From contig CAZJKB010000001.1 of the NCBI GenBank assembly GCA_964546485.1, positions 5,140-40,612 of the forward strand: 35,473 bases of DNA, read 5' to 3'. This stretch comes from an uncultured Candidatus Saccharibacteria bacterium. Its GTDB lineage: Bacteria > Patescibacteriota > Dojkabacteria > SC72. Both the position numbers and the translations under genes were made by a program. This document shows, piece after piece, positions 1,973 to 23,513 of this stretch. Numbering within the stretch: the first letter of the stretch is position 1; every line of letters begins with the position of its first letter. The notes beneath the pieces were generated by a model. The model was given only the letters and a program-made list of their open reading frames with translations, had not been told where the DNA came from and ran no database searches.

Positions 1973-3151
1973 TTATAATTCGATAACATACGGGCCATAT
2001 ATCCACCCATCTTTATTATCTGAATATTGTATCTTATACCAACCATTAGATTTTTCTTTCATTATTAATATTTGATTATGGTTAACCCTACCAATAGGGT
2101 TACAACCAGGTCCAGGGCATTCTCTTACATTCAAAAACCCTCCAGGGATATTAACTTTAATTAACTTTGTATTACCCTTATCTATTGTGAAGTCTATTTG
2201 AAATTCTGTATTATCTAACACATTATTAGGCAATCTTTTAACAACAAATTTTTCAGAATACTTTCCAGGTAATTGCATTGCAGATAATTGAAATACTAAT
2301 GTTACCTGTTCCCCAGGTAATACTGTCTTATTTGATATTGCTGTCGGCTTACTAAAACTTTCCCATTCACCATTTACTGCAAATTTAGAATCCCTATCTT
2401 TTAATGTTGAGACATAGATATAATCCCTATTTGTAAACCATGGGAATTTATCTACATTTTTAATAATTAATTCTACCTGTATCTTTTCACCTATCTTTGC
2501 AGACTTAGGATAGTTTATAGATATTATTTCTCCTTTTAGTTTTTGATTTGGCTTTTCATATAATTTAAGACCATTAACTAGATTATTTATGGAATCACTA
2601 AATGGATTATTAAGTTTTGTTAATCTACTTTTTGTTGTATTTCCTTCTTTTTTAACAGCCTTCAGTGACATTACAGATATTGATTTTTTTGAAACTCCAT
2701 AATCATATGAGATTGAAGATATCAAAGATTTTAATGCATCTGAGCCTAAATTAGATAATTCAGTATTCTTTGAGATGTATGCTATTAATACTCCACCCTT
2801 ATCCTCCTCAATTTCAGCGATAGCTCCAAGACCACCATATTTACCTTCTATTACATTTCCTGATTCATCTACTATATAGTTAAAAGGTATATCTGCATAT
2901 CCTAATCTAGTTATACTGTAATAGTAGATTTCATTATATAGAGATTTAATATCATCATTGAATACTGTAGCTGGTAGTTTTATAGGGACTATGTATATAT
3001 TTGTTGGTTGAGAGTATTTAATATTAGTCTTATCAGCTAATGCCTCATCAATTACCAATTCCTCCCTAGTCTTCATTGCAAACACAGGGGTTAGAAAAAG
3101 AGATAATAATATGATTGTGATTAATATTGATTTAATATTGGGCAATTTCAT
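1973..3151 (-). CDS. Secreted wall-binding protein: degenerate amidase_2/PGRP-like region, Ig-like middle domain, C-terminal SH3b
   Basis: 392-aa ORF starting at ATG. The N-terminal signal/anchor is MKLPNIKSILITIILLSLFLTPVFA. ITRLGYADIPFNYIVDESGNVIEGKYGG resembles the GW.DIGY.F.ID..G.I.EGR core of N-acetylmuramoyl-L-alanine amidase (amidase_2), but the expected flanking His residues are not evident. The C-terminal FLNVRECPGPGCNPIGRV...NGWYKIQYSDNKDGWIYGPYV fits the bacterial SH3 (SH3_3) pattern. Confidence 0.7.
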   Translation of the reverse strand: MKLPNIKSILITIILLSLFLTPVFAMKTREELVIDEALADKTNIKYSQPTNIYIVPIKLPATVFNDDIKSLYNEIYYYSITRLGYADIPFNYIVDESGNVIEGKYGGLGAIAEIEEDKGGVLIAYISKNTELSNLGSDALKSLISSISYDYGVSKKSISVMSLKAVKKEGNTTKSRLTKLNNPFSDSINNLVNGLKLYEKPNQKLKGEIISINYPKSAKIGEKIQVELIIKNVDKFPWFTNRDYIYVSTLKDRDSKFAVNGEWESFSKPTAISNKTVLPGEQVTLVFQLSAMQLPGKYSEKFVVKRLPNNVLDNTEFQIDFTIDKGNTKLIKVNIPGGFLNVRECPGPGCNPIGRVNHNQILIMKEKSNGWYKIQYSDNKDGWIYGPYVIEL

Positions 3152-3189: not shown

Positions 3190-4221
3190 CTATTTTGATG
3201 GATAGTATACTCTTGATGGATCTATTGCATTTGTAAGGATAATCAATGGTAATTTTAGATCTTCTTTATTGAGTGTAGCTGTTCCTTCTGCTTCTATTCT
3301 ATATGTAGGTACTAATTGATTATAACTATTATCCTGATATATATATCCTAATTTTATCTTATTTCCTATTGAATTCTTATCAATATCTATACTATCAGCC
3401 AATTCGACCAATCCAATTCCTTCCTTAAGCTGTTTCGTGCTTGTTGATGTCGATTTTGGAGGATAGAAACCATAGTAAAGGGTTTTTGGATATTGTGTAT
3501 ATTTTATTGCTGCTTGAAGATAATCAAGAGTAACAATTTCAACATCTTGTGATCGTTTTGTATCTATCTGTGCAAGTAGGAGTGTACCTTCATAAAGCTT
3601 ACCAGATGAATCAACAGATACAGTATCGGAATACGATTGAAAACTATTGAAGAATAATGGATATCCATCTATACTTCTATTTGATTCAATTCTATTTAAA
3701 TACCCTGATTTAGTTATATTCTCATTTATATACTCATACTTATAACCTAAGTAATCATTAAATAATACACTTAGATATCCTTTCCCTGTGATACCATCAG
3801 TTGAAACCATTCTAGTGTTAGCTGGTTTTGTAAACTTAAAGAAAAGTGATTGATTATTTTTAATATACTCGACATAATCACCCTCTCCACTCCAAATATA
3901 GAGATTACCATCTATAGATGTTTTAGATAGATTTCCCTTACCTATTGTTATTAAGAATGAATCTATATTAGAACTCAGATTTATATCCTCAAGAGAGTAT
4001 ATTTTCATCTGCTTTGGGATATCTATAGACTTCTTTAACTCATCACTCATACTTACAACATGTGTTGTTTCTATTGAATATGGAGTATCTATTAAATATT
4101 CTCTAGGAGTTTCTTTTTTTGTTGCTTTAATAACTATATATATAATTATTGAGAAAATGAGAATAATTATACCTATTACTATTAACTGTATTCTTCTATT
4201 GTTTAAATCTATTTTTAACAT
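3190..4221 (-). CDS. N-terminally membrane-anchored extracytoplasmic protein, unknown function
   Basis: The track ORF 3190-4236 begins at a GTG. The first ATG (4219-4221, MLKIDLNNRRIQLIVIGIIILIFSIIIYIVI...) is the more likely start. It overlaps the upstream stop by 7 nt (CCATGTTAA), which suggests translational coupling. It has one TM helix followed by a beta-rich domain of about 300 aa with no cysteines. I recognise no family by eye. Confidence 0.7.
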   Translation of the reverse strand: MLKIDLNNRRIQLIVIGIIILIFSIIIYIVIKATKKETPREYLIDTPYSIETTHVVSMSDELKKSIDIPKQMKIYSLEDINLSSNIDSFLITIGKGNLSKTSIDGNLYIWSGEGDYVEYIKNNQSLFFKFTKPANTRMVSTDGITGKGYLSVLFNDYLGYKYEYINENITKSGYLNRIESNRSIDGYPLFFNSFQSYSDTVSVDSSGKLYEGTLLLAQIDTKRSQDVEIVTLDYLQAAIKYTQYPKTLYYGFYPPKSTSTSTKQLKEGIGLVELADSIDIDKNSIGNKIKLGYIYQDNSYNQLVPTYRIEAEGTATLNKEDLKLPLIILTNAIDPSRVYYPSK

Positions 4222-7187
4222 GGCGACATAGCACACTTTAATTTATCTCTATACCAAGATACAGAGTCTTGATATGTACCTTTAGATTTAACATGTAAAT
4301 GGAAGTGAGGACCAGTCCAACAAGTCACTGAATAATCACCACTTGGATCTAATCCATCTTGAGCAAGAGCAACTGCTCTTCCTTTTTGGACAGGACCTAC
4401 TGGTGCAAGAGCTTTGACATGTAAAAGAACATAAACATTTCCATCGGAGTCTTGAAATTCAAGATGACCACCATAATCTAAACCAGTTCCAGGACAATTA
4501 TTAACAGCTACATATTTTGTAATTTTTCCATTTGTAGGAGCATACCACACAGCCTTCCCTGCTGGCACAACTCTAGTTCCAATATCTATAGCTTTTGTTG
4601 ATTGGTGATATGATGAAGTACCTGCTCCATTTCCCTGTGTACATATAATTGGAGAGAATCCTAAAGGACAATCAGAATCAATAGGAGGGTAATCTCCACC
4701 CCCTGGGTTATCTGGTGGAGTAGGGAATAATCCTGCATCAGGATTATAATCTACACATTGTTTGGCACTACCAGGTGTTACATGTGCAAATGTATTATTA
4801 ACTTTTGTTGTGGGATTAAACAGCCCAACAAATCCAAATAAAAATACCAACAAAATAGCAACAAATCCCATCGCAGCAAGAAAGAAGATTTCTATCATAA
4901 ATTTACCTACTTTCATACCTAATTCTACTAGTACTGCAGATGCTATTGCTGTTAATGCACCACCTATAGGGCCACCAACACTCATACCTATTGCAGTTAA
5001 TAATTTACTAACACCAGCTTGTACTAATTGTCTAAAACCAATGCTCTTTGCTAAAAATTGTTCTACTGCTACACTATCACCGATTATCCTATTTAATAAT
5101 GTTGTCGCCCATTTTTTAATAATGGCATTATTCATAGGATTTATTTTATCTGAGATGACCCCAAAGAATCTCTCTGGAGTACTAAAAAGCTTAGTAGCAC
5201 CTGCCAATACCTTTTCAAATCTACCCAACATTGCTGCTTGGCTTGCAAATGCTCCCTTGGATTTAGCTATTTTAGATAATAGTTCTTCTAATTTCTCTGG
5301 GTTTGACAGTACCATTTTACTAAGGTCACCTGCTTTTAATTCGCCTTTATCATCAAAGAACTCCTTGATTAAAGCATATGTACCATCTTTCTTCATCTTA
5401 TCTATCATCCCACCATCTTTGAATCGACTTAAAAATTCAAGCCTATTTCTATATTGTAAGAAAGCAAATAATTCACCATTTGTTAAGCTTCCAAAAATTG
5501 TTCCTGGGTTTAAGTAATACAGATATGCAAAATTCCCATACCATGATTTAATCTCAGGATTTGGAGCTATGAATCCTTTTTTATTAAATTCTTTATATTT
5601 ATTTCCTTTTTCATCAGTCTTCCAAGTAAACATACTTTTGTTAAATGCAAGTTCACCATTGACTGATGGGTCAAACATATCACCTGTACCATAAAATCCT
5701 CTACCTCCTAAAAGAAGATTAGAAGCAAGCCCCCCTTTAATAATATTTGCATTTATTGAATCCCAAGAACCTTTCAGTGCTTCAAATCTATGTGCCCATC
5801 CTATCCTACCCATACCATTGATCTGTTGTTTCTGTAATTTGAGCAACCTTAATTTATCATCTATTTCAGATACCTTTGATGATTCACCACCAGTTCTTTG
5901 TAGGATAGAAAGTTCTGCATTGTATCTTTTTTCCAGCAGTTCTATCTCATCAAGCATAGATCTAATATATAATTTATTAGATCTTGTATCTCGACCATAA
6001 CTATTAAAAACCCTATTACCAAATCTCTTAGCATTTTTCTCAGAGTCAATAGCATTTTTTTCTAATTTCTTTAGCTGGGTTTGCATGTCATTAATTAAAG
6101 ATTTCTCTACAGGAGTTAAACTGCCTGTACCACCAATATCATTGATAATTTTTTGTACAGTTCCTATTTCTTTTTTTGCATTTTCAAATATACCTTTATT
6201 TTGAGCAGCTAACTCAATTTTTGTCATACCTGCATCCTGTGTTTTCTGAAGAACTGACATTAAACTTGCTGCCTTTAATAGTTCCTCTCTTCTCTTTCTT
6301 AATTCTGATACCTCTTGGGGAGTTGCACCAGTATTGGGATCAATTAATCTAGCTCTCTTTAATAAATTTTCAAGAGATATCTCCCTATATTTATTTGCTT
6401 GTAAATTAGCATCCTTATAGACAGCCCCATCTCCTCCTGCAGAACTTTTTATTTTAGTAACTTCATTCGTATGATCTTTAGCCACTTCAGCTGCCAAACT
6501 TCTTGCATCAGCATCTGAGAACCCTTTAGAGAAAATTTTATACAGATTTCCTTCACTAAAATCACCTGTTTTTGCATTATCTAAAAGTTCTAATGCTTTT
6601 GAGGCAATTTGTGGTTTTGCAATCAACTTATTAATAGCTATATTTTGAGCAATCTTTTTAAATGCCTCATTTTGCATATCCAGTGTTACCTGTCCTCCAG
6701 CTGCATATGCTAAATTCATAGCATTTTTCCCAGTTACACCATTCTTACTTGCCCATGCTAATGCCATTGCACCATCAATACCTTTTCCTAATGCAACAAA
6801 ATAGTTCCATTTTCTTGTCGCTTTCTCTGCATCAAACACACCATCAATGTATTTCTTAGGATTACTAAATAGTTTACCTAAGTCACTTGTTCTAACTCTA
6901 AGCCTTCCCGATGTATCAGGGTCTTTTTTATTTGGTTTACCAACATAACTTTCAAAAATTTTCTGATCTAATGCATTGTTTATTGCTCCTAATGCATTCT
7001 CACTTAAGTAAATACCTGGTTTACTCATTAATTCTGCCATTTGCTTGGCAATGATATTACTATTAGAGATATTATTATATTTTGGTGGTTTAATCTTTGG
7101 CTTTTTCTTCTTTGCTTCTTTATATAGGAAATCAAAGACCGAAGCCAATGGATCACCACTATTTTTTGATTTACCTTTTTTAGCCAT
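4215..7187 (-). CDS. Large coiled-coil membrane protein with C-terminal M23 (LytM-type) metallopeptidase domain
   Basis: 990-aa ORF starting at ATG. About 728 aa are Cys-free, Lys/Glu/Ala-rich and predicted helical, with no signal peptide. A hydrophobic block at aa 729-790 (nt 4818-5003) reads GGPIGGALTAIASAVLVELG / FMIEIFFLAAMGFVAILLVFLFGFVGLF. The C-terminal 200 aa (nt 4218-4817) carry 7 Cys and the M23 signature YHQSTKAIDIG ... GGHLEFQD ... GPHFHLHV (H..xD and HxH motifs). Confidence 0.8.
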   Translation of the reverse strand: MAKKGKSKNSGDPLASVFDFLYKEAKKKKPKIKPPKYNNISNSNIIAKQMAELMSKPGIYLSENALGAINNALDQKIFESYVGKPNKKDPDTSGRLRVRTSDLGKLFSNPKKYIDGVFDAEKATRKWNYFVALGKGIDGAMALAWASKNGVTGKNAMNLAYAAGGQVTLDMQNEAFKKIAQNIAINKLIAKPQIASKALELLDNAKTGDFSEGNLYKIFSKGFSDADARSLAAEVAKDHTNEVTKIKSSAGGDGAVYKDANLQANKYREISLENLLKRARLIDPNTGATPQEVSELRKRREELLKAASLMSVLQKTQDAGMTKIELAAQNKGIFENAKKEIGTVQKIINDIGGTGSLTPVEKSLINDMQTQLKKLEKNAIDSEKNAKRFGNRVFNSYGRDTRSNKLYIRSMLDEIELLEKRYNAELSILQRTGGESSKVSEIDDKLRLLKLQKQQINGMGRIGWAHRFEALKGSWDSINANIIKGGLASNLLLGGRGFYGTGDMFDPSVNGELAFNKSMFTWKTDEKGNKYKEFNKKGFIAPNPEIKSWYGNFAYLYYLNPGTIFGSLTNGELFAFLQYRNRLEFLSRFKDGGMIDKMKKDGTYALIKEFFDDKGELKAGDLSKMVLSNPEKLEELLSKIAKSKGAFASQAAMLGRFEKVLAGATKLFSTPERFFGVISDKINPMNNAIIKKWATTLLNRIIGDSVAVEQFLAKSIGFRQLVQAGVSKLLTAIGMSVGGPIGGALTAIASAVLVELGMKVGKFMIEIFFLAAMGFVAILLVFLFGFVGLFNPTTKVNNTFAHVTPGSAKQCVDYNPDAGLFPTPPDNPGGGDYPPIDSDCPLGFSPIICTQGNGAGTSSYHQSTKAIDIGTRVVPAGKAVWYAPTNGKITKYVAVNNCPGTGLDYGGHLEFQDSDGNVYVLLHVKALAPVGPVQKGRAVALAQDGLDPSGDYSVTCWTGPHFHLHVKSKGTYQDSVSWYRDKLKCAMSPC

Positions 7188-7198
7188 TATTAGTTATA

Positions 7199-8680
7199 TT
7201 ATCCAGCTATAAATGAACCGATAATAGGGATCTTTGCAGCAGCTTTTCTAGCCCCATCAATCGCTGTAGCGGCTCCTTTTCCACCTTCAACTTGTATGAA
7301 ATCAGCAAGGAAATTAGGAACTTCAGCAGCTAAAAAGAACATACCAATTGCAAGGAAAGCCTTTAATAAACCTCCAATTGCACCATTATCTGTTCCTCCT
7401 GCGGACCAATCACCTTGAGCTAATCCATGAGGAAAAGATATATTTATCTGATCCTGAAGTATAAATGAAGCAAGGTTTAAGAAGAGGAATACACCTGGAA
7501 ATACTAATGCATTTTTCAATACTCTCTTAAACAAATTTGATGTTAAGTTTTCTTGTCCAGGAATACTTCCAAATGCAATAACTAATGGAGCTAATATCAC
7601 ATCAATGATTATTGATAGATATGCTGTTAGCAATGTTATGTATACCCTAAATGAAGCATATGCAATTATTGCAACAAATATTAATACCAAAATTAAAAGT
7701 CCTATAATGAGACCAACACCAGCTGCTCCTGCTGTCGCAAGTGTAAAGAAACCTGCAGCAGAACCAACAATACCCATTCCTAAACCTGCAGCTGCACTTC
7801 CTCCTGCTAACCAACTACCTGTACCTGAGTCAAATAAACCTTCCATAACTGAACCTCCAAACCATAACTCTTTAACTAAGCTAATTGGATTATCAACAAA
7901 TACAGGATCAGTAACACCTAAAACCCCACCTATCACATTTGTTCCTATCATAGAAATATTCAAGATAAGACCTATAATTGCAAAACTGAATGGTACCAAT
8001 ATTAAACCGATAATAACATTAGGTAATGCATTAAATACTGTTACTGCAACTTGTCCACCAATCTTTTGTCTAAGCATGATCATAAACCCTGCAGCTATGA
8101 GTACAACAACAAATAATACATATGCAATTAAAGATGTTCTCTCCCATAAAGCATCAATACCGATTTCGGATAAAAAACTATAACCATCGGTAGCAGCATA
8201 AACTCCTGAATTTGCTTCCTCGTAGCCTGGTACCCAGTCGTTTGCCAATGCAACTGGTACATTTATTGTTGGAGTACTTTTTAACAATGCAACATTCTGC
8301 CCTTCAAAGAAATCCATAATTCCTTGTTTATTATAAGACTCAATTGTTGGATCATTTGCAACATCATCTATATTTGAGAAAACTGCTGGTGCAATAGTTG
8401 TAAGAAATGAATTAATCAAGCCAACAAAAGTATTCAAAACACCTAAATCAGAATTCGGACCTGTATCACCTGTTAAATGACCAGATACAGTACTCTGAAC
8501 CTGATAAGTTTTTTGCATATCAATAAATCCAGAAGCATTTACAGTATAAACATTCAAGATATTGAAAAGAAAAAATACTGTAGCAATAAAAGCTAGAAAG
8601 TTTTTAGCTGAGTTACTTTTAATAAAAGTAATCCCTTTTTGAATATATTTAAATATACCTATAATCAGTTCTGAGTTCAT
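7199..8680 (-). CDS. Polytopic Gly/Ala-rich integral membrane protein; its topology resembles VirB6/TrbL, but this is unverified
   Basis: 493-aa ORF starting at ATG. An N-terminal TM (FLAFIATVFFLFNILNVYTV) is followed by a soluble loop of about 130 aa, then at least 6 hydrophobic helices (LIAYVLFVVVLIAAGFMIM, VIIGLILVPFSFAIIGLILNI, GLIIGLLILVLIFVAIIAYA, IIIDVILAPLVIAFG, ALVFPGVFLFLNLASFIL, LLKAFLAIGMFFLAA). There is a glycine-rich stretch, GSWLAGGSAAAGLGMGIVGSAAGF. It lies 11 nt from the downstream gene. Confidence 0.7.
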   Translation of the reverse strand: MNSELIIGIFKYIQKGITFIKSNSAKNFLAFIATVFFLFNILNVYTVNASGFIDMQKTYQVQSTVSGHLTGDTGPNSDLGVLNTFVGLINSFLTTIAPAVFSNIDDVANDPTIESYNKQGIMDFFEGQNVALLKSTPTINVPVALANDWVPGYEEANSGVYAATDGYSFLSEIGIDALWERTSLIAYVLFVVVLIAAGFMIMLRQKIGGQVAVTVFNALPNVIIGLILVPFSFAIIGLILNISMIGTNVIGGVLGVTDPVFVDNPISLVKELWFGGSVMEGLFDSGTGSWLAGGSAAAGLGMGIVGSAAGFFTLATAGAAGVGLIIGLLILVLIFVAIIAYASFRVYITLLTAYLSIIIDVILAPLVIAFGSIPGQENLTSNLFKRVLKNALVFPGVFLFLNLASFILQDQINISFPHGLAQGDWSAGGTDNGAIGGLLKAFLAIGMFFLAAEVPNFLADFIQVEGGKGAATAIDGARKAAAKIPIIGSFIAG

Positions 8681-8718
8681 AATATCTATAATTAAATTAA
8701 CTTAAATAGTATACCAAA

Positions 8719-10104
8719 TTAATAACAACTTTGAGACCATAATTCTGCCTGTTTATTTACATAACTCCAATATTCCTCAAATGTAGCAGGAATATTAGTT
8801 TCTCCAGGTCTTGCATCTCTCTTTTGTCTATACCAATCATTTTTATATACTGTCATATCCCAAATACATGGAATTTTATATATACCTTTTCCATCAACTC
8901 TAACTTTACAAGGTGTTGATACATAGAAAGGATCTACAGCAGGAGCATTTGATACTAATGTATCTTGTACACCAGCCGGAGCCATAGCTTTTGCATATCC
9001 AGGAGCTGTTCTTCCTTGTACTACATAATCCATATAGAAACCAGCATTTTGATTTTTGACTTCTCTGTATGGTGTACCCATTAAAGCATCAACTTCTAGT
9101 GCATACATAACATTGGCTTTACAATTCTCTGGGTCTGGTTCCTCATAAACAAGATTACCATTTGCATCTTTTACATATTTACCCACAGTACAATCTAACC
9201 AATTTTGTACAGTAACAGAAGCAAAAATTGTAAAGTTAAAAGGAAATTTCTTTGATACACAGCTTTTAAATTCATCTGCACCAGCTACAGGTACCATTCC
9301 CCCATCTCCCGTTTTACAATTTAAACCAGCATATGTTCTATTTCCAACCTTAGCTCCTGGAGATTGAAACATGAAATTTAATACATTACCTGCAACTTTA
9401 TTTGAAAAATCAGGATTAGGAGAAGCACTCTGTACCTTAGGACAAACAGATTGTAATTCTCTCTCTATAACAGCTGCATTTAATGTATAATCTGCATTTT
9501 CTTGATCTGTTTTTAATCTAAGATTAAATTCATAGTTTTCTGTTTTATTATCCTGATTTAATTGATCAACTTCCTGTATACAAGCAGATCCAGGAGGACA
9601 ATATGATCGAGCTTCTGCATATGAAATCATTTGATTTGCATTTTTATATGTTCCATTCATACCTTTATCTGTACTCCATATTGCCATTCTACTATCTTCA
9701 ACATATCGACTTCCAGATAGTATTGCTGTAGGTACAGTAATTTCTGCGATCTCAATAACAGAGTTATCAGTTATTTGAACTCCTTTGCCACCTCTACCTA
9801 TCTCTGTTCCATCTCCAACAGTTATACTTGCACCATCTTGAGTACATATTGGTTGATATTTAAGTCTATTTGCTGCTTCACATGGACTACCACTAGTACA
9901 ACCAGTTCCTAAAACTGCACTTGTTCTATTCGTATTTTGATTTGTTTGAATACTACTATTATTAATCTTTACTGGTTGAAGATTAATTGTAGATTGACCA
10001 AATACTTTACTAACTACATTTTCACCACTAAAAGCACTATATATCCCAAAAAGAGATATAACTAAAAAGAGTAATAATAAAAGGTTGTTTCTTTTCATAT
10101 TCAT
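8719..10104 (-). CDS. Secreted cysteine-containing protein, unknown function
   Basis: 461-aa ORF starting at ATG. It has a clear signal peptide, MNMKRNNLLLLLFLVISLFGIYSAFS. About 13 Cys are spread through the mature protein, which ends ...WSQSCY. There is no further TM helix and I recognise no family by eye. Confidence 0.75.
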   Translation of the reverse strand: MNMKRNNLLLLLFLVISLFGIYSAFSGENVVSKVFGQSTINLQPVKINNSSIQTNQNTNRTSAVLGTGCTSGSPCEAANRLKYQPICTQDGASITVGDGTEIGRGGKGVQITDNSVIEIAEITVPTAILSGSRYVEDSRMAIWSTDKGMNGTYKNANQMISYAEARSYCPPGSACIQEVDQLNQDNKTENYEFNLRLKTDQENADYTLNAAVIERELQSVCPKVQSASPNPDFSNKVAGNVLNFMFQSPGAKVGNRTYAGLNCKTGDGGMVPVAGADEFKSCVSKKFPFNFTIFASVTVQNWLDCTVGKYVKDANGNLVYEEPDPENCKANVMYALEVDALMGTPYREVKNQNAGFYMDYVVQGRTAPGYAKAMAPAGVQDTLVSNAPAVDPFYVSTPCKVRVDGKGIYKIPCIWDMTVYKNDWYRQKRDARPGETNIPATFEEYWSYVNKQAELWSQSCY

Positions 10105-10127
10105 ATCTAGGATTTTACAATATTTCC

Positions 10128-11981
10128 TTAGAAAACTCTATCTATCATATCAATATTTTTCTTTTTTCTTTTAATAAAGAAAGACACTATTAATATGAGA
10201 GATATTAAGGAGAGAATAAATGATGGAATCCATATAGATGTTTTAGGTGTTTCATCCAGATCATCAAGTGAACCACCACCTATACCACCAGCATCATCTG
10301 TGTTAGGTACTGATGCATTATATACTCCATAACTCTTAAGTTTTGCAACTTTTACAGGCTCATTTATAGTCACTGATGATAATACTTTGAGTTGGATATC
10401 GGAATCGGATATTGAAGAGTATTTAATTGTTTCTGTATCTTTATCAAAATATCCAAGGGAAGTGATGATAATACTATCATCATTTGATGCATTGTAATAG
10501 TTTAATCCATCACTAGTCCTTATATCACCAATAGATACTATCCAATTACCTTGATCATCAGGAGTAGCAGATGATTTGGTGGATTTACCTGAACTACCAG
10601 AACCATCTTTATCTTCTATCTCTACAACTATTAAAGCATCTTTCATATTTGATACACCTGTTAGTTTTCCTGATATTGTCTTAAATTCAGGTGGTGAAGA
10701 TAGTGTTTTAAATGTTTTAACACTAAATGGTGCACTATTATTTAATATTGTTGTAGTTCCTGAGATTATTTCAAAAAAATATTCTGTTTCTGGTTGTAAT
10801 CTTGAGAGGGAAACAGAGTGCTGGTAATACTTACCTTTAGATAACATACTGTCTTTTTCATCATAACCTGTATTATCTAGTGCTTGAGCTGTGGTACCAT
10901 ACTTAATATAACCATCTTGTGCTGTATTTGTTGTCCAAGATATTGTAAATCCGGTATCTGTAAGATTTGAAATTAAGACAGATTTATCACCAATTAATAC
11001 ATTGGTTGGTACAGAGGTCTGAGCTGTTGTACCAGCAACAGGATTTATTGATACCTGCTTAACATATCTAAACACTCTAGTTCCTGTATATTCATCATCA
11101 GGATCTTCCACTATTGGTTCTTCTGGCTCTTCAACTACTGGTTCTTCAGGGGTCTCAGGTTCTTCTACAACAGGTGTTTCTGGTACTTCAGGGGTAGTTG
11201 TCTTAACTGATGCAATAATTGCATTTGCAGGGAGTATAGTTGAAACTGAAATAGTACTACTAGTATCTAGTATATATGTACTATTTAACTTACCTTCATT
11301 TGAGAATAGTTCAGAATATCTTCCTGTAATATACTTACCTGCTTCTGATTTTCCTCTAACAAATATTTTTAATTGTGTATCACTTTCAATATCAACCAAT
11401 GTACTACTTCCATCTCTAAGAGCAGAGAGGTCTATTACCCAGTTACCTGCACTACTAGAGGTAGTACTTGCAGGATACATTTTGCTTGAATCAGTAGTTA
11501 TATATACTAAATAATCATCGGATGATACACCTGTTATTGTTCCATAAACAGGTTTAGGAACTGGAGATCCAGATACTAACTTAGAAGTAGTGAATTTAAA
11601 ATCTTTACCATTTTCTGTAGTATATTTTTTTCCATTAGAAGTAATATAGAAAGAATATTCTGTTTCAGGATCTAAATCATTAATTTCAACATGATGAGTA
11701 TATCTTTTACTATTTCCTCTAATATCTAAATATGGTTTAGATTCTTTTCCATTTTTCGTAGTAACTAGAGTACCAAGGGTTTGTGCATCAGTTATCCATG
11801 TTACAGTTATAGAATTAGATGTTAGATTTGATATAACTACACCCTTTGGATCCTCTTGTGGTGCTGCTCCTGTAAAAAATTGAACTGCAAAATATGATGC
11901 TAATACTGTAAAAGGAATAGCTAAAGCAATAATTGCAGTTATTAAGAGATATCTTTTCTTTTGTTTTGACGATACATACAT
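10128..11981 (-). CDS. Surface protein with two FN3 (purple-acid-phosphatase-N-like) plus beta-sandwich modules, a Pro/Glu linker and a C-terminal hydrophobic anchor
   Basis: 617-aa ORF starting at ATG, with an N-terminal anchor YLLITAIIALAIPFTVLASYF. The FN3-like signatures are ITVTWITDAQTLGTLV...RYTHHVEINDLDPETEYSFYITSNG and FTISWTTNTAQDGYIKYG...YYQHSVSLSRLQPETEYFFEIISG. The linker is PEVPETPVVEEPETPEEPVVEEPEEPIVEDPDDE. The C-terminus is ETPKTS-IWIPSFILSLISLILIVSFFI-KRKKKN. Confidence 0.8.
   Translation of the reverse strand: MYVSSKQKKRYLLITAIIALAIPFTVLASYFAVQFFTGAAPQEDPKGVVISNLTSNSITVTWITDAQTLGTLVTTKNGKESKPYLDIRGNSKRYTHHVEINDLDPETEYSFYITSNGKKYTTENGKDFKFTTSKLVSGSPVPKPVYGTITGVSSDDYLVYITTDSSKMYPASTTSSSAGNWVIDLSALRDGSSTLVDIESDTQLKIFVRGKSEAGKYITGRYSELFSNEGKLNSTYILDTSSTISVSTILPANAIIASVKTTTPEVPETPVVEEPETPEEPVVEEPEEPIVEDPDDEYTGTRVFRYVKQVSINPVAGTTAQTSVPTNVLIGDKSVLISNLTDTGFTISWTTNTAQDGYIKYGTTAQALDNTGYDEKDSMLSKGKYYQHSVSLSRLQPETEYFFEIISGTTTILNNSAPFSVKTFKTLSSPPEFKTISGKLTGVSNMKDALIVVEIEDKDGSGSSGKSTKSSATPDDQGNWIVSIGDIRTSDGLNYYNASNDDSIIITSLGYFDKDTETIKYSSISDSDIQLKVLSSVTINEPVKVAKLKSYGVYNASVPNTDDAGGIGGGSLDDLDETPKTSIWIPSFILSLISLILIVSFFIKRKKKNIDMIDRVF
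11094..11195 (-). repeat. Imperfect short tandem repeat encoding the Pro/Glu-rich interdomain linker
   Basis: On the + strand, the octamer ggttcttc occurs at 11116-11123, 11140-11147 and 11158-11165, with spacings of 24 and 18 nt. On the coding strand this gives repeated (E)EP(E/V) units, aa 263-296 of the 617-aa protein. Confidence 0.6.
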
Positions 11982-12048
11982 ACTAAATATGAATATACTT
12001 TATACTAAAAGATATCATGAAAACATCTTAATGTGTATATATTAATTG

Positions 12049-12366
12049 TTATTTTATAAAGCCTTTAATAAAAGATGATATTGATCTAATAGGAACAATT
12101 AATACTTCGTTGAATTCATCTATTGTATTTTTTATATTTCCTAAACTACCTTTAAGTCCTGAAACAACTTCAGATGTATCATCAACTATTTTTCTTGCAC
12201 CTCTGATTATTTCTCTACTATCTTGAATAGTTCCTTGTACTTCTTTTAGAGTATTTGTACTTTCTTTAACAAGCATTGCTACATAGTATAGTATTAATGC
12301 AAGCATTCCTGATAGTACTCCAATAACTATCATCCAATATAGTGCAGGTATTGTGTTTGTATCCAT
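12049..12366 (-). CDS. Small single-pass membrane protein with a coiled-coil tail (DUF948-like by eye)
   Basis: 105-aa ORF starting at ATG. The N-terminal TM is ALYWMIVIGVLSGMLALILYYVAML. It is followed by a heptad-like helical region, KESTNTLKEVQGTIQDSREIIRGARKIVDDTSEVVSGLKGSLGNIKNTIDEF. It lies 18 nt downstream of the 1320-aa gene. Confidence 0.6.
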   Translation of the reverse strand: MDTNTIPALYWMIVIGVLSGMLALILYYVAMLVKESTNTLKEVQGTIQDSREIIRGARKIVDDTSEVVSGLKGSLGNIKNTIDEFNEVLIVPIRSISSFIKGFIK

Positions 12367-12384
12367 AATTATAAATATATAAAA

Positions 12385-15300
12385 TTAATTAGAACCTGGT
12401 TTACCATGAGAAGAACCTCCTGGATTCCAAATTATCGATTTGGTATTATTATCTGTTCCCTCAAATTTAACTATTCTTACAAAATATCCTAGATCTCTTG
12501 ATATTGGGAAATCAAATCCATAGGTAGTTCCATCAGATACTTGTAATCCCTCATATTTACCTTTTGATGTTGGCCACCATGTTACATTATCTGCTGTTAA
12601 TCCACCAACAGAATTAATAGAATCAATAAATGATTTAGCTGTATATGTTGTTGTATAACCATTAACACCTACTAAGTTCCAACCTGATGAAAGAGCTACA
12701 GGTATAGAAGATTTAATATTTAATGCTGGAATATCCATTGAAAAATCAAAGTTTGATTGTAATAAATAACCTCGTCCTAATACTAATGTGAAATCATTAC
12801 CAATAAACTTAGAAAAATCACTCTCATTTACTCCAATACCTGATACCCATTTTCCTCCCTCAAAATATGAAATACTTTTTATGAAATTACCATTAAAATT
12901 TAAAAGCTTTAGTAATTCACCTGCAGTCATAGGTTTACTCCCATCCGAAGATAGTATTGCTGGGAATGAGACAATATTAATACCTCTTTTCAAGTTTAAT
13001 TTAAAATTCGAAGATATCTTCTCAACAATTATATCTTCACTTGTTAAATCTATTAATTCATCTCCAGCTGTTAAACCTTTATAACCATCTTTTTCAACAT
13101 ACAGAGAAATATCTGAATCTGTATTTGGAATAGAATATTTGAAATCCTTGCCATCAACCTTAATTGAGTATATTCCTGCCTCAGGGAATAGCTTTAATGT
13201 TCGAACATTAGCATCAACACCTAGTACAGAGGTAATACCTTTAACATTTGAATTAGCTACACATTCACTTTTTGTTTTTCTTAATGCATCATTTACTAGA
13301 TTACCACTACATTTCTTTTCTCCCCAGCTACTTAATTTTGTTTCAGTATTATAACAGCAATAACCACAACTCTGAATATCTCTATCAGTCGAGGTCCAAC
13401 CAGTTCCGACTCCATTAGCATCGGACCATCGTAACTCACCATTCATATTCCCACTCCAACACACTTTCTGATACAAATCCATATTCACAGAATTACTTGA
13501 ATCACTATTAATACAACTATACTGTGTAGTTAAGTTAGGGAAGCTTTTCAATTTATCTTTCTTGATTCTTGGATCATTATGTAGCAGCCACGATGAAATA
13601 TAATATGTACCAAAATCTTTTCCATAACAACCATAACCTTTTGATCCCAAGTCAATATTGGAACAATCTGCATAGCCAACAACCTTTTCATTAGATTCAC
13701 ATTTTGAGTCTGTATGCATAGAGTTATCAGTTCTTTGACAACATACCTTTTGATTAGAAAATGCACAGAAGGCATTATCCCTAATCTTGCCTCCAGATAC
13801 TTCACAAGCATTTCGAGTTTTTGGGGTTGAACTATTTGAACAACAAATTTTAGACATTTCTACTGGTTTAATATCTTCACATTTTCCTTTTCCTAAAATC
13901 TCCTGATCAACCCTACAATATGAAGCATTAACTAAACTCCCATCACTAGTTTTACAACATACTGCTTGATTAGGGATAGAACAGTATCCAGAATCTATTT
14001 CTTTGGTACATTCTGATTTTTTCTTTAATATTCCAGTAATATTGTTTCCTCCAGTCCTTTGACAACATACTTTTTCATTTAAGTACTCATTTAAATCACC
14101 ACAATATTTTTGTCCCGTTTGTAAATCAAGTAATAAATAATATGAAGACCCAACCTCAAGATTGGCTGAACAACTTAATGATATATTACCAACAACATCA
14201 GGTGCACAACCTGTAGGTTTATCAAATCTATCTAATTCTATATGATAAAACTTCTTACAACTCTTACCATCCCATTTACCTGTTGAAGGATCACAATTAG
14301 TCTTACCACTTGATGCAGTACATTCACCTGTACTTTGATCCTCTGGAATTACAGGAGGAATAACAACAACTTTTTTACTACACTTATTGGTATAATCTGC
14401 ACAGTTCTCGGTTTTTGATATATTGAAAGTATCCGAACCACCATCTGTAGTATAACCAGGTTTTATATTACTACATTTACATTGTATTTGATCATTCTCA
14501 GGTTCCGGAGCTAAATCAGGAATTGAAGTAGGATTGTATATACCAATACATTTTTTCAAGTCTTTATCAAAAGCAGAACCCTCAGAACATGTATAACAAA
14601 CTCCATTACATACAGTTCCTTTTTCTTCTTTACATCCCTTAACATCGGGTACAAATGTTTGATTGGTCCCATTACAACTATCTGGTCTTGTATTAATATT
14701 AGATGCACTAACATCTTCACAACCCACAGGAATTGCTAAATTATTATCTTTATAATACTTTACACTTTTACATAATTGACCGTTAGATTGAACTTTTGGT
14801 GTACAATCACCGCCAACACATTCTATTTCTCCTCTTGAATAATTTGCACATGATGCAGGTCTACAATCATCACCTATTTTATAATACTTACTTGCAGATT
14901 TACTATAACAGTAACAGCCAGCATTCTCTGTACAATCTTTCGCCAGCTCACCACTACAATCATTTGGTATTGCCTTATTATCTACATTTGTTGTTCCCCC
15001 AGACTGTGGATATATCCTACATTTAGTAGTAGACCCATCTAGACAACCATAAGGACAATCCTGTGCACAATTAAACTCCTTTTCTCTTGAAACACAATTC
15101 CCTTTTGCATTACATTTATGAGTTGCTTGATTACAAGTTGCTGCAGAACATGTTGCACTAGTAGATCCGCCCCCATTGTTAGGTGTTGTAGTTTTCTTTG
15201 TGCAAGACCATCTGCCTGTTGCTCCTCCTGGAACACATTGACATTCATAATCTCCTTCTGTTCTTTTTTCACCAAAATACTTCGAATTACATACATCACC

Positions 15301-16347
15301 AGATTTAGTTGCATATACATCACTACTAATAATATCTATTAGTTGAGATTGCATAATCTTTTCATCAATAAATATCTCAAATTTCTTAAAAATATCTCCC
15401 CTATATTTATCAGGAACTCCACCAAGAATATTATCTGCAGGACTATCATTTTTACCCCATATATACTGGGTCTGATATACCTCTTTTATATTTTCAACCT
15501 GTGCTGATATCTTTAGATAGTCAATATTATCTTTATAGTAGTTAGTTGCAAGTGATCCATCATTTTTTCGAAAATTTGATTTATCAATTGTCCAACCAGC
15601 ATCCTTATTAGTTACAGAAGAAAGTACATTAGAGATTTCTTTATCATCTCCATAGGCATACATAAATACTATGGAATCGGTATTTAGGTTCTCTTCAATA
15701 AACCCATCTTTATTATATACACCTGATAATACTTTTCCGTATGCAGGATTAGGTGTTGGTATATTTTCTGGTTCTGAGAATGTATTAAAAGAAAAAGTAT
15801 CAATTGTTTTGAATTCATACTCTCCAATATTTTGTTTTACACTATTAATATTCCAACTTCTTAACCCATTTGAAACTCTAAAATAGTATTTAGTATTAGG
15901 ATTTAAGTTAAATATTGTTGCATGATGTACATAATATTTTCCAAGTTTAGTTACTTTAATATTTTCGAAATCTTGAGAGTCTATCTCTGAATTATATTCA
16001 CTATCTACATTTTTAAGTGCATCTTTAGTTATTTTTTCAAGTCTTTCTGATAGTGCTTGATTATAATCTCTATCATCATAACCTTTTGTATACCCACTCC
16101 AAGGAAAGAATTCATCTTTATCATTTGCCAAAACTACTCCACTATCTGCCCTATCAGTTACCCATGATATTGTCGCAGAACTTCCTGTAATATTTGATAC
16201 CCTAACCTTAAGAGGTGTATTTGTTAATGAATATACTAATGATACTAAAAGATACCCCAATCCAAGTATAATTCCAATCAATAAAACATATTTAAGAACA
16301 CCCCAGACAACTTGTTTAACTCTTGTGATATTTAGTGCAAATTTCAT
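12385..16347 (-). CDS. Giant (1320 aa) membrane-anchored surface protein: FN3 plus beta-sandwich module, a cysteine-rich core of about 680 aa, and a duplicated C-terminal beta module
   Basis: Starts at ATG. The N-terminal anchor is VWGVLKYVLLIGIILGLGYLLVSLVY. The FN3-like signature is ATISWVTDRADSGVVL...YYVHHATIFNLNPNTKYYFRVSNG. All of the roughly 62 Cys lie between aa 353 and 1029 (nt 13261-15294), with none before or after. A CC-containing module is repeated five times (VCCQRT, VCCKTS, ICCSNS, VCCQRT, YCCYNT). Confidence 0.85.
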   Translation of the reverse strand: MKFALNITRVKQVVWGVLKYVLLIGIILGLGYLLVSLVYSLTNTPLKVRVSNITGSSATISWVTDRADSGVVLANDKDEFFPWSGYTKGYDDRDYNQALSERLEKITKDALKNVDSEYNSEIDSQDFENIKVTKLGKYYVHHATIFNLNPNTKYYFRVSNGLRSWNINSVKQNIGEYEFKTIDTFSFNTFSEPENIPTPNPAYGKVLSGVYNKDGFIEENLNTDSIVFMYAYGDDKEISNVLSSVTNKDAGWTIDKSNFRKNDGSLATNYYKDNIDYLKISAQVENIKEVYQTQYIWGKNDSPADNILGGVPDKYRGDIFKKFEIFIDEKIMQSQLIDIISSDVYATKSGDVCNSKYFGEKRTEGDYECQCVPGGATGRWSCTKKTTTPNNGGGSTSATCSAATCNQATHKCNAKGNCVSREKEFNCAQDCPYGCLDGSTTKCRIYPQSGGTTNVDNKAIPNDCSGELAKDCTENAGCYCYSKSASKYYKIGDDCRPASCANYSRGEIECVGGDCTPKVQSNGQLCKSVKYYKDNNLAIPVGCEDVSASNINTRPDSCNGTNQTFVPDVKGCKEEKGTVCNGVCYTCSEGSAFDKDLKKCIGIYNPTSIPDLAPEPENDQIQCKCSNIKPGYTTDGGSDTFNISKTENCADYTNKCSKKVVVIPPVIPEDQSTGECTASSGKTNCDPSTGKWDGKSCKKFYHIELDRFDKPTGCAPDVVGNISLSCSANLEVGSSYYLLLDLQTGQKYCGDLNEYLNEKVCCQRTGGNNITGILKKKSECTKEIDSGYCSIPNQAVCCKTSDGSLVNASYCRVDQEILGKGKCEDIKPVEMSKICCSNSSTPKTRNACEVSGGKIRDNAFCAFSNQKVCCQRTDNSMHTDSKCESNEKVVGYADCSNIDLGSKGYGCYGKDFGTYYISSWLLHNDPRIKKDKLKSFPNLTTQYSCINSDSSNSVNMDLYQKVCWSGNMNGELRWSDANGVGTGWTSTDRDIQSCGYCCYNTETKLSSWGEKKCSGNLVNDALRKTKSECVANSNVKGITSVLGVDANVRTLKLFPEAGIYSIKVDGKDFKYSIPNTDSDISLYVEKDGYKGLTAGDELIDLTSEDIIVEKISSNFKLNLKRGINIVSFPAILSSDGSKPMTAGELLKLLNFNGNFIKSISYFEGGKWVSGIGVNESDFSKFIGNDFTLVLGRGYLLQSNFDFSMDIPALNIKSSIPVALSSGWNLVGVNGYTTTYTAKSFIDSINSVGGLTADNVTWWPTSKGKYEGLQVSDGTTYGFDFPISRDLGYFVRIVKFEGTDNNTKSIIWNPGGSSHGKPGSN

Positions 16348-16378
16348 TAAAAAAGAAAATAATATATTACATATTATA

Positions 16379-16408
16379 TATATAACTATGTATTTAACTT
16401 AATGTCAA
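16379..16408 (-). promoter_or_regulatory. Candidate sigma70-type promoter for the eight-gene surface cluster
   Basis: The minus strand reads TTGACA (complement of 16403-16408), an 18-nt spacer, then TATATA (complement of 16379-16384). This sits about 30 nt upstream of the ATG at 16347. The background is very AT-rich, so the -10 assignment is soft. Confidence 0.4.
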
Positions 16409-16433
16409 TAAACTATATTAATTAGAATAAATC

Positions 16434-16442
16434 TGAGATAAT
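16434..16442 (+). promoter_or_regulatory. Extended -10 element (TGaGATAAT) 5 nt upstream of the rsmE ATG
   Basis: tgagataat at 16434-16442, then acact, then ATG at 16448. There is no purine-rich SD in between. Confidence 0.45.
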
Positions 16443-16447
16443 ACACT

Positions 16448-17176
16448 ATGCTAAATTTCTACATTCCTCATAAAATTAAAATTGGAGAAATTACTAAACT
16501 ATCAGATCAAGATAGTAAGTTTGCTATTGCTAATAATATAGAACTCAAACAGCAGATCTATATTGAAAGTAATGGAAATAAATATATAGCAAAGATATTA
16601 AAGATAAATACAAACAGCATAGATGTAATTATAGAAGATATTATAATTGAGAAAAATGATATTGATTATGAAATAGTACTATTACAAAGTTTAATTCATA
16701 CTCATAAATATAAATATGTTATTGAAAAAGCAGTTGAGATTGGTGTACATAGCATACAACCGATATATTCAGAATATAGTACTGAGAGTATAAAAAAAAT
16801 TGCTAAGATGAATAATATATGGCGAAATACTATCAAAGATGCTAAAGAACAATCTAGAAATTCATATGATATTAAATACAATAACCCAATCGAGATATCT
16901 AATCTTGGTGACGTTCTTGATAAAGATAGTATAAAGATATGTATGAGTACAGAGAATATTCAAAAAACAGATTTAGGTAATATAACAAATGAAATAATAA
17001 AGAATAAAAAAATATATATTGCAATTGGACCAGAAAGAGGTTGGGGTGTAGAGGATATCAATATATTTTCTAACCTTAGTTTTCAGTTTATTCAATTAAA
17101 TGGAAACATATTAAGAACAGAAACTGCATCATTAGTAATTTTAAGTATGATAAAGTATATTAAAGAGTATAAATAA
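16448..17176 (+). CDS. rsmE: 16S rRNA (uracil1498-N3)-methyltransferase RsmE
   Basis: 242 aa. The motifs LLQSLIHTHKYKYVIEKAVEIGVHSIQP, KDAKEQSRN, IAIGPERGWGVEDI and GNILRTETASLVILS match the RsmE/SPOUT family pattern (..K.dk.e.i.qKa.ELGv, iGPEGGfs..E, LG.rILRtETA). Confidence 0.85.
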   Translation: MLNFYIPHKIKIGEITKLSDQDSKFAIANNIELKQQIYIESNGNKYIAKILKINTNSIDVIIEDIIIEKNDIDYEIVLLQSLIHTHKYKYVIEKAVEIGVHSIQPIYSEYSTESIKKIAKMNNIWRNTIKDAKEQSRNSYDIKYNNPIEISNLGDVLDKDSIKICMSTENIQKTDLGNITNEIIKNKKIYIAIGPERGWGVEDINIFSNLSFQFIQLNGNILRTETASLVILSMIKYIKEYK

Positions 17177-17178
17177 AG

Positions 17179-17184
17179 TATAAT
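17179..17184 (+). promoter_or_regulatory. Consensus -10 hexamer TATAAT 6 nt upstream of the RsmB-family gene ATG
   Basis: tataat at 17179-17184, then gtaaaa, then ATG at 17191. It lies just after the rsmE stop (17174-17176). No SD is present. Confidence 0.4.
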
Positions 17185-17190
17185 GTAAAA

Positions 17191-18195
17191 ATGAAAAAAA
17201 GAAGTAATATAAAACAAAAAATTAAAGATAGAAAAAAATATTATAATAAAATTGATATATTTCTATCAAGAATGGCAGGTATTCTAAAAATTCCAACTGG
17301 TTTAGTACATAGATATTTTTCTCAAAGAACTGTAACAACAATCAGACTAAACACATTAGTACAAGATGCTAAGACTACTTACGAGCAATTAATTAATAAT
17401 GGATTAGAACTTGAAGCAATATCTTGGTCTAAAGATACATATATTGTGAAAAATAAGGATAAATCTGAAATTGCAAAACTTGATAGTTATCGAGATGGTC
17501 ATTTCTATATTCAAAATTTATCAAGTATGATACCTGCTATTGCCCTATCCCCTACTCCTCAAGATATTGTTCTTGACATGTGTGCAGCACCAGGAAGTAA
17601 AACCACACAACTTGCTGTTATGCTAAACAACAAAGGTGAAATAATTGCAAATGACGATGATAAACATAGAGTTGAAAAACTTCAAGGTGTTTTAGATATG
17701 TTTGGAGTCACAAATACAACAGTTAGATTTGGAAGAGGAGAATTTATTGGTAAGAGAGAAGAGAATCACTATGATAAGATTCTACTAGATGCACCATGTA
17801 GTGGAGAAGGTATGATATATCTCAAAGGTGATAAACCCTTAAGATTTTGGAATATTAAAAAAGTAAAAGCATTTTCAAAAATACAAAAAGATTTAATAGA
17901 TTCTGCATTTAATGCTCTAAAGAAAGGTGGTGAATTAGTATATTCAACTTGTACATTAGAACCTGAAGAGAACGAAGGAGTAATTACTTATCTATTGAAT
18001 AAATATCATAATGCAGAAATTATGGAAATTCCAGTCTTTAAAACTATTATTAATGAGGATTCTAAAAGATATATTAAAAAAGGTTTAAGGATTTTCAATG
18101 ATACAAAATATATAGACGAAGTATCTAAAACATATAGAATATGTCCTCACGATAGAATGATGGGATTTTATGTAGCAAAGATTACTAAAAAATAA
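17191..18195 (+). CDS. rRNA cytosine-C5 methyltransferase, RsmB/RsmF (NOL1/NOP2/Sun) family, lacking an N-terminal NusB-like domain
   Basis: 334 aa. SAM-binding motif VLDMCAAPGSKTTQLA, catalytic motif ILLDAPCSGEG, and YSTCTLEPEENEGVI (the second catalytic Cys motif, TC). Confidence 0.85.
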   Translation: MKKRSNIKQKIKDRKKYYNKIDIFLSRMAGILKIPTGLVHRYFSQRTVTTIRLNTLVQDAKTTYEQLINNGLELEAISWSKDTYIVKNKDKSEIAKLDSYRDGHFYIQNLSSMIPAIALSPTPQDIVLDMCAAPGSKTTQLAVMLNNKGEIIANDDDKHRVEKLQGVLDMFGVTNTTVRFGRGEFIGKREENHYDKILLDAPCSGEGMIYLKGDKPLRFWNIKKVKAFSKIQKDLIDSAFNALKKGGELVYSTCTLEPEENEGVITYLLNKYHNAEIMEIPVFKTIINEDSKRYIKKGLRIFNDTKYIDEVSKTYRICPHDRMMGFYVAKITKK

Positions 18196-23512: not shown

Positions 23513-23513
23513 A

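Follow-up and report, generated by a model that had tools for sequence, protein, structure and literature searches.

Bacteria of the candidate phyla radiation (CPR; Patescibacteria) account for a large fraction of bacterial diversity and are thought to live on other cells. We analyzed a 35,473-nt stretch of DNA (the window) from a Dojkabacteria genome deposited as an uncultured Candidatus Saccharibacteria bacterium (GenBank assembly GCA_964546485.1, contig CAZJKB010000001.1, positions 5,140 to 40,612), with a focus on gene F, which encodes a 990-amino-acid (aa) protein. In the one genetically tractable CPR member, a divergent type IV secretion system (T4SS) is required for living on other cells, but its wall-crossing components are barely described. 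"Ca. Southlakia epibionticum" (Saccharibacteria) cannot grow as an epibiont without its T4SS cluster (Wang et al., Cell 2023, PMC10633639). A survey of CPR genomes (10.1101/2025.01.22.634366 / PMC12102498) describes widespread chromosomal T4SSs related to the Gram-positive MPF-FATA class. According to the same survey, CPR T4SSs usually lack a relaxase, VirB1-type hydrolases are seldom detected, and Dojkabacteria are among the T4SS-bearing lineages, with at least two Dojkabacteria genomes marked as VirB4 positive in Table S1 (PMC12102498).

One Southlakia protein is of particular relevance to gene F. SEML1_0007 (1113 aa) has no Pfam domain, was scored essential, and is encoded directly after VirB4 (PMC10633639, Tables S1/S2). 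Its C terminus has a DD-peptidase fold, its structural neighbors in the AlphaFold database (AFDB) are annotated as M15B- and M23-domain proteins, and its gene lies beside those for a lysozyme/cysteine-peptidase protein, an NTF2/VirB8-like protein, a VirB6-like protein, and pilins (PMC10633639). The F protein is likewise from a CPR bacterium, of similar size (~1000-1100 aa for the two), without a Pfam domain, composed of a long N-terminal region followed by a peptidoglycan-peptidase fold, and encoded alongside a VirB6-like protein. The two differ in that the fold of SEML1_0007 is of the DD-peptidase (M15-like) type, whereas that of F is M23, and in that SEML1_0007 adjoins VirB4, whereas the F operon lies apart from any ATPase. 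Compared by description, with SEML1_0007 known from transposon sequencing and structure-based annotation alone, F appears to be the Dojkabacteria equivalent of this little-described class.

PrgK (pCF10), TraG (pIP501), CwlT (ICEBs1), and Tn916 ORF14 are membrane-anchored extracellular peptidoglycan hydrolases, as is predicted for F. These VirB1-class enzymes of Gram-positive bacteria are encoded beside VirB6-like polytopic and bitopic VirB8/TcpC-like proteins, and the Tn916 order ORF15 (membrane protein)-ORF14 (lysozyme/C40 peptidase)-ORF13 is that of genes E, F, and G described below. They share a CHAP domain with some F relatives, and PrgK also contains a LytM domain. Unlike F, they have a short N-terminal anchor and nothing like its putatively cytoplasmic 730-residue helical domain, typically pair a glycosidase with either CHAP or NlpC, and show no sequence similarity to F beyond the generic M23 fold. 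The F operon also differs from Gram-positive conjugative T4SSs in having no VirB4, VirB3, or VirD4.

T4SS-associated wall hydrolases are a known class; the F family is unrecognized by current annotation. It joins a large helical domain, putatively cytoplasmic, to an interchangeable and putatively extracellular wall peptidase, and in Dojkabacteria it is encoded beside a VirB6-like protein in a conserved operon. With modest confidence, we favor the explanation that F is the N-in/C-out wall peptidase within a CPR envelope module related to T4SSs, which would also include E and G, with VirB4 encoded elsewhere.

Gene F and its protein family

The layout of gene F is as follows.

4215..7187 including the stop codon at 4215-4217, minus strand: gene F (open reading frame list and translation; 228 homologous clusters)
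5004..7187, minus strand: residues 1-728, Cys-free, basic, all-helical bundle domain, putatively cytoplasmic (AlphaFold2 [AF2] model, conservation, Cys partition, charge)
4818..5003, minus strand: residues 729-790, hydrophobic block with a predicted re-entrant hairpin at GGPIGG, an MKxGK loop, and a transmembrane helix at 763-790 (hydropathy, AF2, charge)
4671..4817, minus strand: residues 791-839, Pro/Gly-rich linker modeled with low confidence (predicted local distance difference test [pLDDT], <50 at 794-831)
4218..4670, minus strand: residues 840-990, divergent M23 (LytM-type) metallopeptidase domain (profile versus PDB, Foldseek, conserved residues)

A previous interpretation of the DNA letters alone (the sequence-only reading) had reported a 990-aa protein at 4215-7187 without naming the strand. 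The frame exists and is an ATG-to-TAA open reading frame of 990 codons on the minus strand; a plus-strand reading of the same interval was rejected, its translation being filled with stop codons. An exhaustive hidden Markov model (HMM) search with F yielded 228 clusters (50% identity) at an E value of <=1e-3 with the same architecture, whose members were mostly 800-1100 aa long and matched end to end. Because 228 homologous clusters share this architecture, the frame is far beyond what chance would produce. A word-indexed homology search, even with a 60-sequence profile, returned only 2 relatives versus these 228, and the low-complexity helical sequence of F appears to saturate the candidate list in such searches. 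Comparison of the full-length protein with Pfam, NCBIfam, and the PDB (phmmer) gave nothing useful. F is a previously unannotated family; ~75% of its length has no relative in Pfam, NCBIfam, or the PDB, and it is missed both by annotation at Pfam thresholds and by word-indexed searches.

The C-terminal domain had been described in the sequence-only reading as an M23 peptidase with two zinc motifs, HQSTKAID (residues 861-868) and GPHFHLHV (residues 959-966). Pfam Peptidase_M23 (PF01551) matched the isolated C-terminal 200 aa with an E value of 0.021 (15.4 bits), which is below the 28.7-bit gathering cutoff, and a metallo-endopeptidase family was the sole PHROG match of F (residues 875-978; E = 0.003). 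At the same position, the family member P0112 scored 68.6 bits for PF01551. The 60-sequence family profile matched 9gy1 (E = 1.1e-7), 5kqb (8e-6), and LytM (9e-4) in the PDB. Foldseek aligned the AF2 model of F to M23 structures (StM23, Csd1/2, EnpA, and the EnvC LytM domain) at a probability of 1.0, with target-normalized TM scores of 0.56 to 0.67.

We checked the M23 motifs against known catalytic residues. In the profile alignment to solved M23 structures, D868 corresponded to the Asp of HxxxD, H923 to the catalytic His, and H961/H963 to HxH; D868, H923, and H961 were present in all 116 F relatives compared and H963 in 115. F thereby has the fold, catalytic Asp, catalytic His, and HxH in common with StM23 (9gy1), LytM, lysostaphin, and the LasA/beta-lytic group. 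It departs from LytM/M23 enzymes in the first zinc His, which in the family lies 7-10 residues before the Asp and not 4, in its six conserved Cys, and in its subthreshold Pfam score. The residue at D868-4 is Thr in F, and the nearest upstream His (H861) is at offset 7; a His lies within 12 residues upstream of the Asp in 109 of the 116 relatives, mostly at offset 7, 9, or 10. M23A enzymes such as LasA likewise have a longer His-to-Asp spacing. The M23 fold with D868, H923, and HxH was upheld; HQSTKAID is not a canonical HxxxD motif. F has seven Cys (811, 840, 849, 898, 956, 985, and 990), all within residues 811-990, and the last six are near-invariant among the relatives. Judging from conserved residues and the model, the C terminus is a divergent, disulfide-stabilized M23 domain that is probably active, and residues 840-990 provide a construct for enzymology.

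The terminal domain varies within the family. A census of the 151 best-scoring family representatives found the M23-like domain in 116, a canonical M23 domain (Pfam, 5e-19) in 1, and a CHAP domain (E = 1.4e-5) in another 1. In 25 representatives, the M23-like domain is replaced by a Cys-rich domain of ~170 aa that Pfam does not match and in which HExxH and EWGAD are invariant. The PDB gave this domain a single weak, nonsignificant match, to the active-site helix of clostridial collagenase (M9; E = 0.08), and judging by that match it may be a gluzincin-like peptidase domain not described before. Proteins of this type include P0060, P0107, P0125, and other representatives and occur in Dojkabacteria loci such as L018, L025, L027, and L033. 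Some F relatives have extra domains after the membrane segment and before the terminal peptidase, and 4 of the 25 HExxH-type proteins have extra domains upstream. In several Dojkabacteria loci, F matches the query only to about residue 815-840 and the rest of the operon is intact, which indicates domain swapping within a fixed operon. An 842-aa F homologue (L047:7473-10001, plus strand), encoded directly after an E homologue, stops right after the transmembrane helix and has no enzyme. Given this enzyme-less homologue, the conserved core of the family is the N-terminal domain plus membrane anchor, and the enzyme is an accessory module. The variable module might report wall or host specificity.

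The AF2 model of F (mean pLDDT, 83.4; predicted TM score [pTM], 0.69) shows an N-terminal region of packed helical bundles with helices of 20-39 residues, short loops, and a beta insertion at 508-542. The long coiled coil proposed in the sequence-only reading is not borne out, as the bundles are compact and the longest helix outside the membrane helix has 39 residues. Residues 1-728 had also been called rich in Lys, Glu, Ala, and Asn; the most abundant residues are K, L, A, G, and N, so that the description fits for K, A, and N but not for Glu (5.9%). The best-conserved parts are the membrane region and residues 1-60 (a basic stretch plus the motif SVFDF), 91-150, and 541-600, and residues 150-480 are variable. 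Searches of the N-terminal region against the PDB, Pfam, NCBIfam, and PHROGs gave no specific match. Coiled-coil and designed-repeat matches in the PDB, such as vimentin (E = 0.006), were rejected as compositional.

The sequence agreed with three further points of the sequence-only reading, i.e., no N-terminal signal peptide, a Cys-free stretch of 728 residues (the earliest Cys is residue 811), and hydrophobic stretches at 729-790. Kyte-Doolittle values in 19-residue windows did not exceed 1.4 upstream of residue 730, there is no N-terminal hydrophobic segment, and 729-790 is the sole hydrophobic block. The order of helical N-terminal region, hydrophobic segment, and muralytic M23 domain is also as first described. 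In the AF2 model, the block consists of a helix at 718-732, a conserved GGPIGG turn, and a long helix at 740-790. Across the 116 relatives, the net charge is +0.9 in the loop before 763-790 and -0.3 after the transmembrane segment. The N-terminal domain of F contains 118 K+R versus 81 D+E, and family-wide, Cys makes up 0.07% of residues N-terminal to the membrane segment and 3.9% of those C-terminal to it. On the basis of the charge distribution, the Cys partition, and the modeled hairpin with one long helix, we infer an N-in/C-out topology in which a cytoplasmic N-terminal domain would be followed by a re-entrant hairpin, a single transmembrane pass, and an extracytoplasmic enzyme. Two membrane passes would have put the peptidase on the same side as the N-terminal region, a puzzle raised in the sequence-only reading; it is largely settled if, as modeled, the first stretch is a hairpin and 763-790 is the single pass. 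PknB-type serine/threonine kinases share the N-in/C-out orientation.

The operon and its possible links to type IV secretion

Gene F belongs to a closely packed operon on the minus strand, whose other members are as follows.

12385..16347, minus strand: gene A, 1320-aa Cys-rich surface protein, the variable first gene (present in about half of the loci)
12049..12366, minus strand: gene B, 105-aa protein with an N-terminal transmembrane segment and a helical tail (sequence, locus comparison)
10128..11981, minus strand: gene C, 617-aa surface protein with two FN3/purple-acid-phosphatase-N (PAP-N)-like domains and a C-terminal anchor (sequence, locus comparison)
8719..10104, minus strand: gene D, secreted 461-aa Cys-rich protein of no known family (sequence, locus comparison)
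7199..8680, minus strand: gene E, 493-aa polytopic membrane protein, VirB6-like (synteny, Foldseek, distant homologues)
3190..4236, minus strand: gene G, 348-aa bitopic protein with an N-terminal transmembrane segment and ~300 aa predicted outside (sequence, synteny)
1973..3151, minus strand: gene H, secreted 392-aa protein combining a PGRP/Amidase_2-like domain with a wall-binding SH3b domain at its C terminus (Pfam SH3_3, PHROG amidase, profile matches)

A locus scan (one genome per species; 13-sequence alignment as the query) returned 35 loci, mostly from Candidatus Dojkabacteria/WS6 metagenome-assembled genomes (MAGs) and some from MAGs with other automatic labels. The gene order (A)-B-C-D-E-F-G-H was identical in 35 of the 35 loci, with A in about half, and the operon lay between RsmE and UvrD wherever the contig reached that far. 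E adjoined F in every locus reaching that position. In the window, 11 nt separate the end of E from the start of F, and an ATG inside G shares bases with the stop codon of F (ATGTTAA). The window has a GC content of ~31% and also carries housekeeping genes, i.e., those for PNPase, S15, IF-2, NusA, DnaJ, AlaRS, YqgF, an MltG-like protein, and a LytR-like protein. With the operon kept in 35 loci and housekeeping genes on its flanks, the setting of F is cellular and not that of a phage, as had been noted.

The polytopic membrane protein mentioned beside F in the sequence-only reading is the product of gene E, and the best lead in that reading proved to be its side remark on conjugation-associated wall hydrolases, since E is VirB6-like and distant relatives of the operon genes occur in T4SS clusters. 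Foldseek placed the AF2 model of E (pLDDT, 78.7) closest to chain 8rt9_F, the R388 TrwI/VirB6 protein (E = 0.03; probability, 0.99; TM score, 0.40), with 7o3v_G/F and 8rtd_H as further matches. A weak Pfam TrbL/VirB6 match, below threshold, was found in 1 of 33 E orthologues (E = 0.0017). The genomic context of distant relatives says more: seven loci from CPR lineages other than Dojkabacteria contain E homologues; five of these have T4SS_pilin genes, and the E-homologue locus L042 also has PrgI/VirB3, TraC-like, and VirB4 genes. In E-homologue T4SS and related loci, F-like proteins (long Cys-poor N terminus, transmembrane segment, M23) are followed by G homologues. One such protein (L041; 1511 aa) matches the F domain with its C terminus (E = 4e-26) and precedes a G homologue (E = 2e-11); another (L040; 1056 aa) has no Cys before residue 899, one transmembrane segment at 751-785, and a canonical Pfam M23 domain and again precedes a G homologue. 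The enzyme-less L047 protein matches F over the N-terminal domain and transmembrane segment, and locus L045 carries a full-length F homologue (E = 7e-137). E and G are testable candidate partners of F.

In other CPR lineages, ~1200-aa Cys-poor proteins are encoded beside E homologues (L043:4951-8685, plus strand; L046:12525-16109, minus strand). Their only hydrophobic segment is at the extreme C terminus, which gives them a tail-anchored look, and they have a layout comparable to that of F with no detectable homology to it.

Competing explanations for the function of F

If F is the wall-peptidase subunit of a T4SS-related module, its ~730-residue Cys-free helical domain would stay in the cytoplasm and tie the enzyme to the inner-membrane complex. 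The hairpin and one transmembrane helix would anchor the protein in the membrane, and the flexible Pro/Gly linker would present a disulfide-stabilized, zinc-dependent M23-type endopeptidase outside it. F, the VirB6-like E encoded immediately upstream, and the translationally coupled G would together form the membrane/wall module of a CPR T4SS-like apparatus, to which a VirB4 ATPase encoded elsewhere would be coupled. The peptidase would cut peptidoglycan cross-links locally, allowing the apparatus to span the cell's own wall and possibly that of a host.

Several results weigh against this explanation. The VirB6 assignment of E is weak, with no Pfam match above threshold, none in NCBIfam or PDB sequences, a modest Foldseek match (E = 0.03; TM score, 0.40), and a negative hhalign comparison with PrgH (pCF10). 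G showed no similarity to the VirB8/TcpC-like proteins PrgL and Tn916 ORF13 in profile searches and hhalign. VirB4, VirB3, and pilin genes were absent within 10 kb of the operon in the 35 Dojkabacteria loci and from the 35-kb window, and, apart from L045 and L047, the N-terminal domain of F had no detectable homology to the large proteins of other CPR T4SS loci. We know of no T4SS hydrolase with a 730-residue cytoplasmic domain. The first zinc-ligand His of F is off its canonical position, so that activity is not guaranteed, and the wall-binding and FN3 proteins of the operon fit a wall function other than secretion equally well.

Such a function could be served by an autonomous, lineage-specific wall-remodeling or division complex, unrelated to secretion, that follows the logic of FtsEX-EnvC, PcsB, or CwlO, with the helical domain regulating an extracellular hydrolase through a polytopic partner. 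EnvC, PcsB, CwlO, and RipC resemble F in combining a helical domain, an interchangeable wall hydrolase, and a polytopic membrane partner. The hydrolase module varies among EnvC (LytM), PcsB (CHAP), and CwlO (NlpC/P60), much as the terminal enzyme does in the F family, and a role of this kind would suit an operon that is universal, single copy, and core, lies among housekeeping genes, encodes a PGRP-like and SH3b wall-binding protein, and has no secretion ATPase in cis. These proteins differ from F, however, in being secreted and FtsE dependent, whereas F has no signal peptide, and the membrane would separate the helical domain of F from its hydrolase, whereas the coiled coils of EnvC and PcsB are extracellular. 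The operon encodes no FtsE or other ABC ATPase, and it has no dcw or mre genes nearby. E, moreover, has no similarity to FtsX; VirB6 is its best structural match, and its homologues elsewhere occur with T4SS pilins and VirB4. We regard a division or remodeling complex as unlikely.

The remaining alternatives start from phage proteins. The sequence-only reading had compared F to tape-measure proteins of the T5 Pb2 type, an identity that we reject: no tape-measure family of Pfam, NCBIfam, or PHROG matched F, no relatives were found in INPHARED phages or PLSDB plasmids (tblastn) or in IMG/VR (pattern scan), there is no long coiled coil, and no phage or tail genes flank F, the flanks being housekeeping genes. 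That F is a prophage remnant, i.e., the decaying tape-measure or ejection-protein gene of an integrated phage, is hardly credible, because operon and position are kept in 35 of 35 loci and the phage, plasmid, and viral collections hold no relatives; the frames are intact, the catalytic residues are conserved, and the window contains no tRNA or integrase. Its sole support comes from the domain order and from Foldseek alignments to phage proteins, which span the whole length but are weak. In these alignments, the F model matched cyanophage A4 gp28 (9k2v_A; E = 3e-5; 806 columns; TM score, 0.1; root mean square deviation, 32 A) as well as models of ~1000-aa cyanopodovirus "internal protein/endopeptidase" proteins and tape-measure proteins with M23 domains (E, ~1e-5; 800-1100 columns). 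A4 gp28 is a pre-ejectosome protein built of helical bundles, a lytic transglycosylase, and M23 (PMC12002296). Like F, it and the M23 tape-measure proteins (e.g., of the T5 Pb2 type) have ~1000 aa, N-terminal helical bundles, hydrophobic segments, and an M23 wall peptidase at the C terminus. Unlike F, A4 gp28 has a lytic transglycosylase domain, and it has no sequence similarity to F; F also differs from phage ejection and tape-measure proteins in being a core chromosomal gene without a long continuous coiled coil. Because the TM score is ~0.1 and the E values are barely better than those of M23-only matches, homology of the N-terminal domain to phage ejection proteins is not demonstrated, and we treat the likeness as a convergent or very remote architectural similarity. 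The same alignments could be taken to mean that F is a host-directed piercing protein, exported or extended to the host in the manner of a phage ejection or tape-measure protein, whose M23 domain digests host peptidoglycan and whose hydrophobic segments insert into the host membrane and open a conduit for the epibiont. The C-terminal enzyme varies between close lineages as the rest of the operon stays fixed, which would fit adaptation to differing host walls, and Southlakia cannot grow as an epibiont without the CPR T4SS (PMC10633639). We nevertheless consider host piercing improbable: F has no sequence similarity to any phage protein, its model (pTM, 0.69) is compact and not an extended rod, its charge and Cys patterns are those expected of a membrane protein that stays in place with N-in/C-out topology, it has no known export signal or route, and the L047 homologue has no C-terminal enzyme at all. 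We give just as little weight to a version in which F would be a cell's own equivalent of phage ejection or tape-measure proteins, i.e., a T4SS-linked, ejectosome-like subunit driven into the host envelope, with an interchangeable enzyme (M23-like, HExxH, CHAP, or glycosidase) matched to the chemistry of the host wall. Doubtful as it is, this version, if true, would offer a direct molecular handle on how CPR bacteria breach their hosts and on which hosts each lineage uses.

Other genes of the operon and the window

The variable first gene, A, encodes a protein with an N-terminal anchor, one FN3/PAP-N-like domain, and a very Cys-rich central region. In the product of gene C, which is kept wherever a locus covers its position, an acidic Pro/Glu-rich linker (PEVPETPVVEEPETPEEPVVEEPEEP...) lies between the FN3/PAP-N-like domains. 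The profiles of D and G found nothing significant in the PDB and Pfam. The profile of H matched PGRPs and SH3b domains. The H family consensus reads ITQV where PGRP-I-beta has its first zinc-ligand His region (IIHTAG), and on this basis H may be a noncatalytic peptidoglycan-binding protein rather than an amidase. A promoter and terminator scan was uninformative, as it found fewer promoter-like sites than in shuffled sequence.

At locus L045 (GCA_015657875.1, ~4700-19400), the operon takes a variant form: a DsbA-like gene in divergent orientation separates B from C, an Amidase_2 protein of 765 aa stands where D would be, and a further polytopic protein (611 aa) is encoded between E and F.

The Dojkabacteria-type operon and its synteny were also found in MAGs labeled as a Clostridia bacterium (L032) and as Gammaproteobacteria (L034) and in many labeled "uncultured Candidatus Saccharibacteria." These labels probably reflect misbinning or automatic mislabeling.

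Outside the operon, a sortase-like gene (26294-27085, plus strand) lies near the gene for a 742-aa surface protein (28429-30657, plus strand) that has a membrane anchor and ends in a long low-complexity tail. IF-2 (21980-23527, minus strand; 515 aa) and AlaRS (30689-32479, plus strand; 596 aa) are markedly shorter than is typical of bacteria, which is consistent with a reduced CPR genome.

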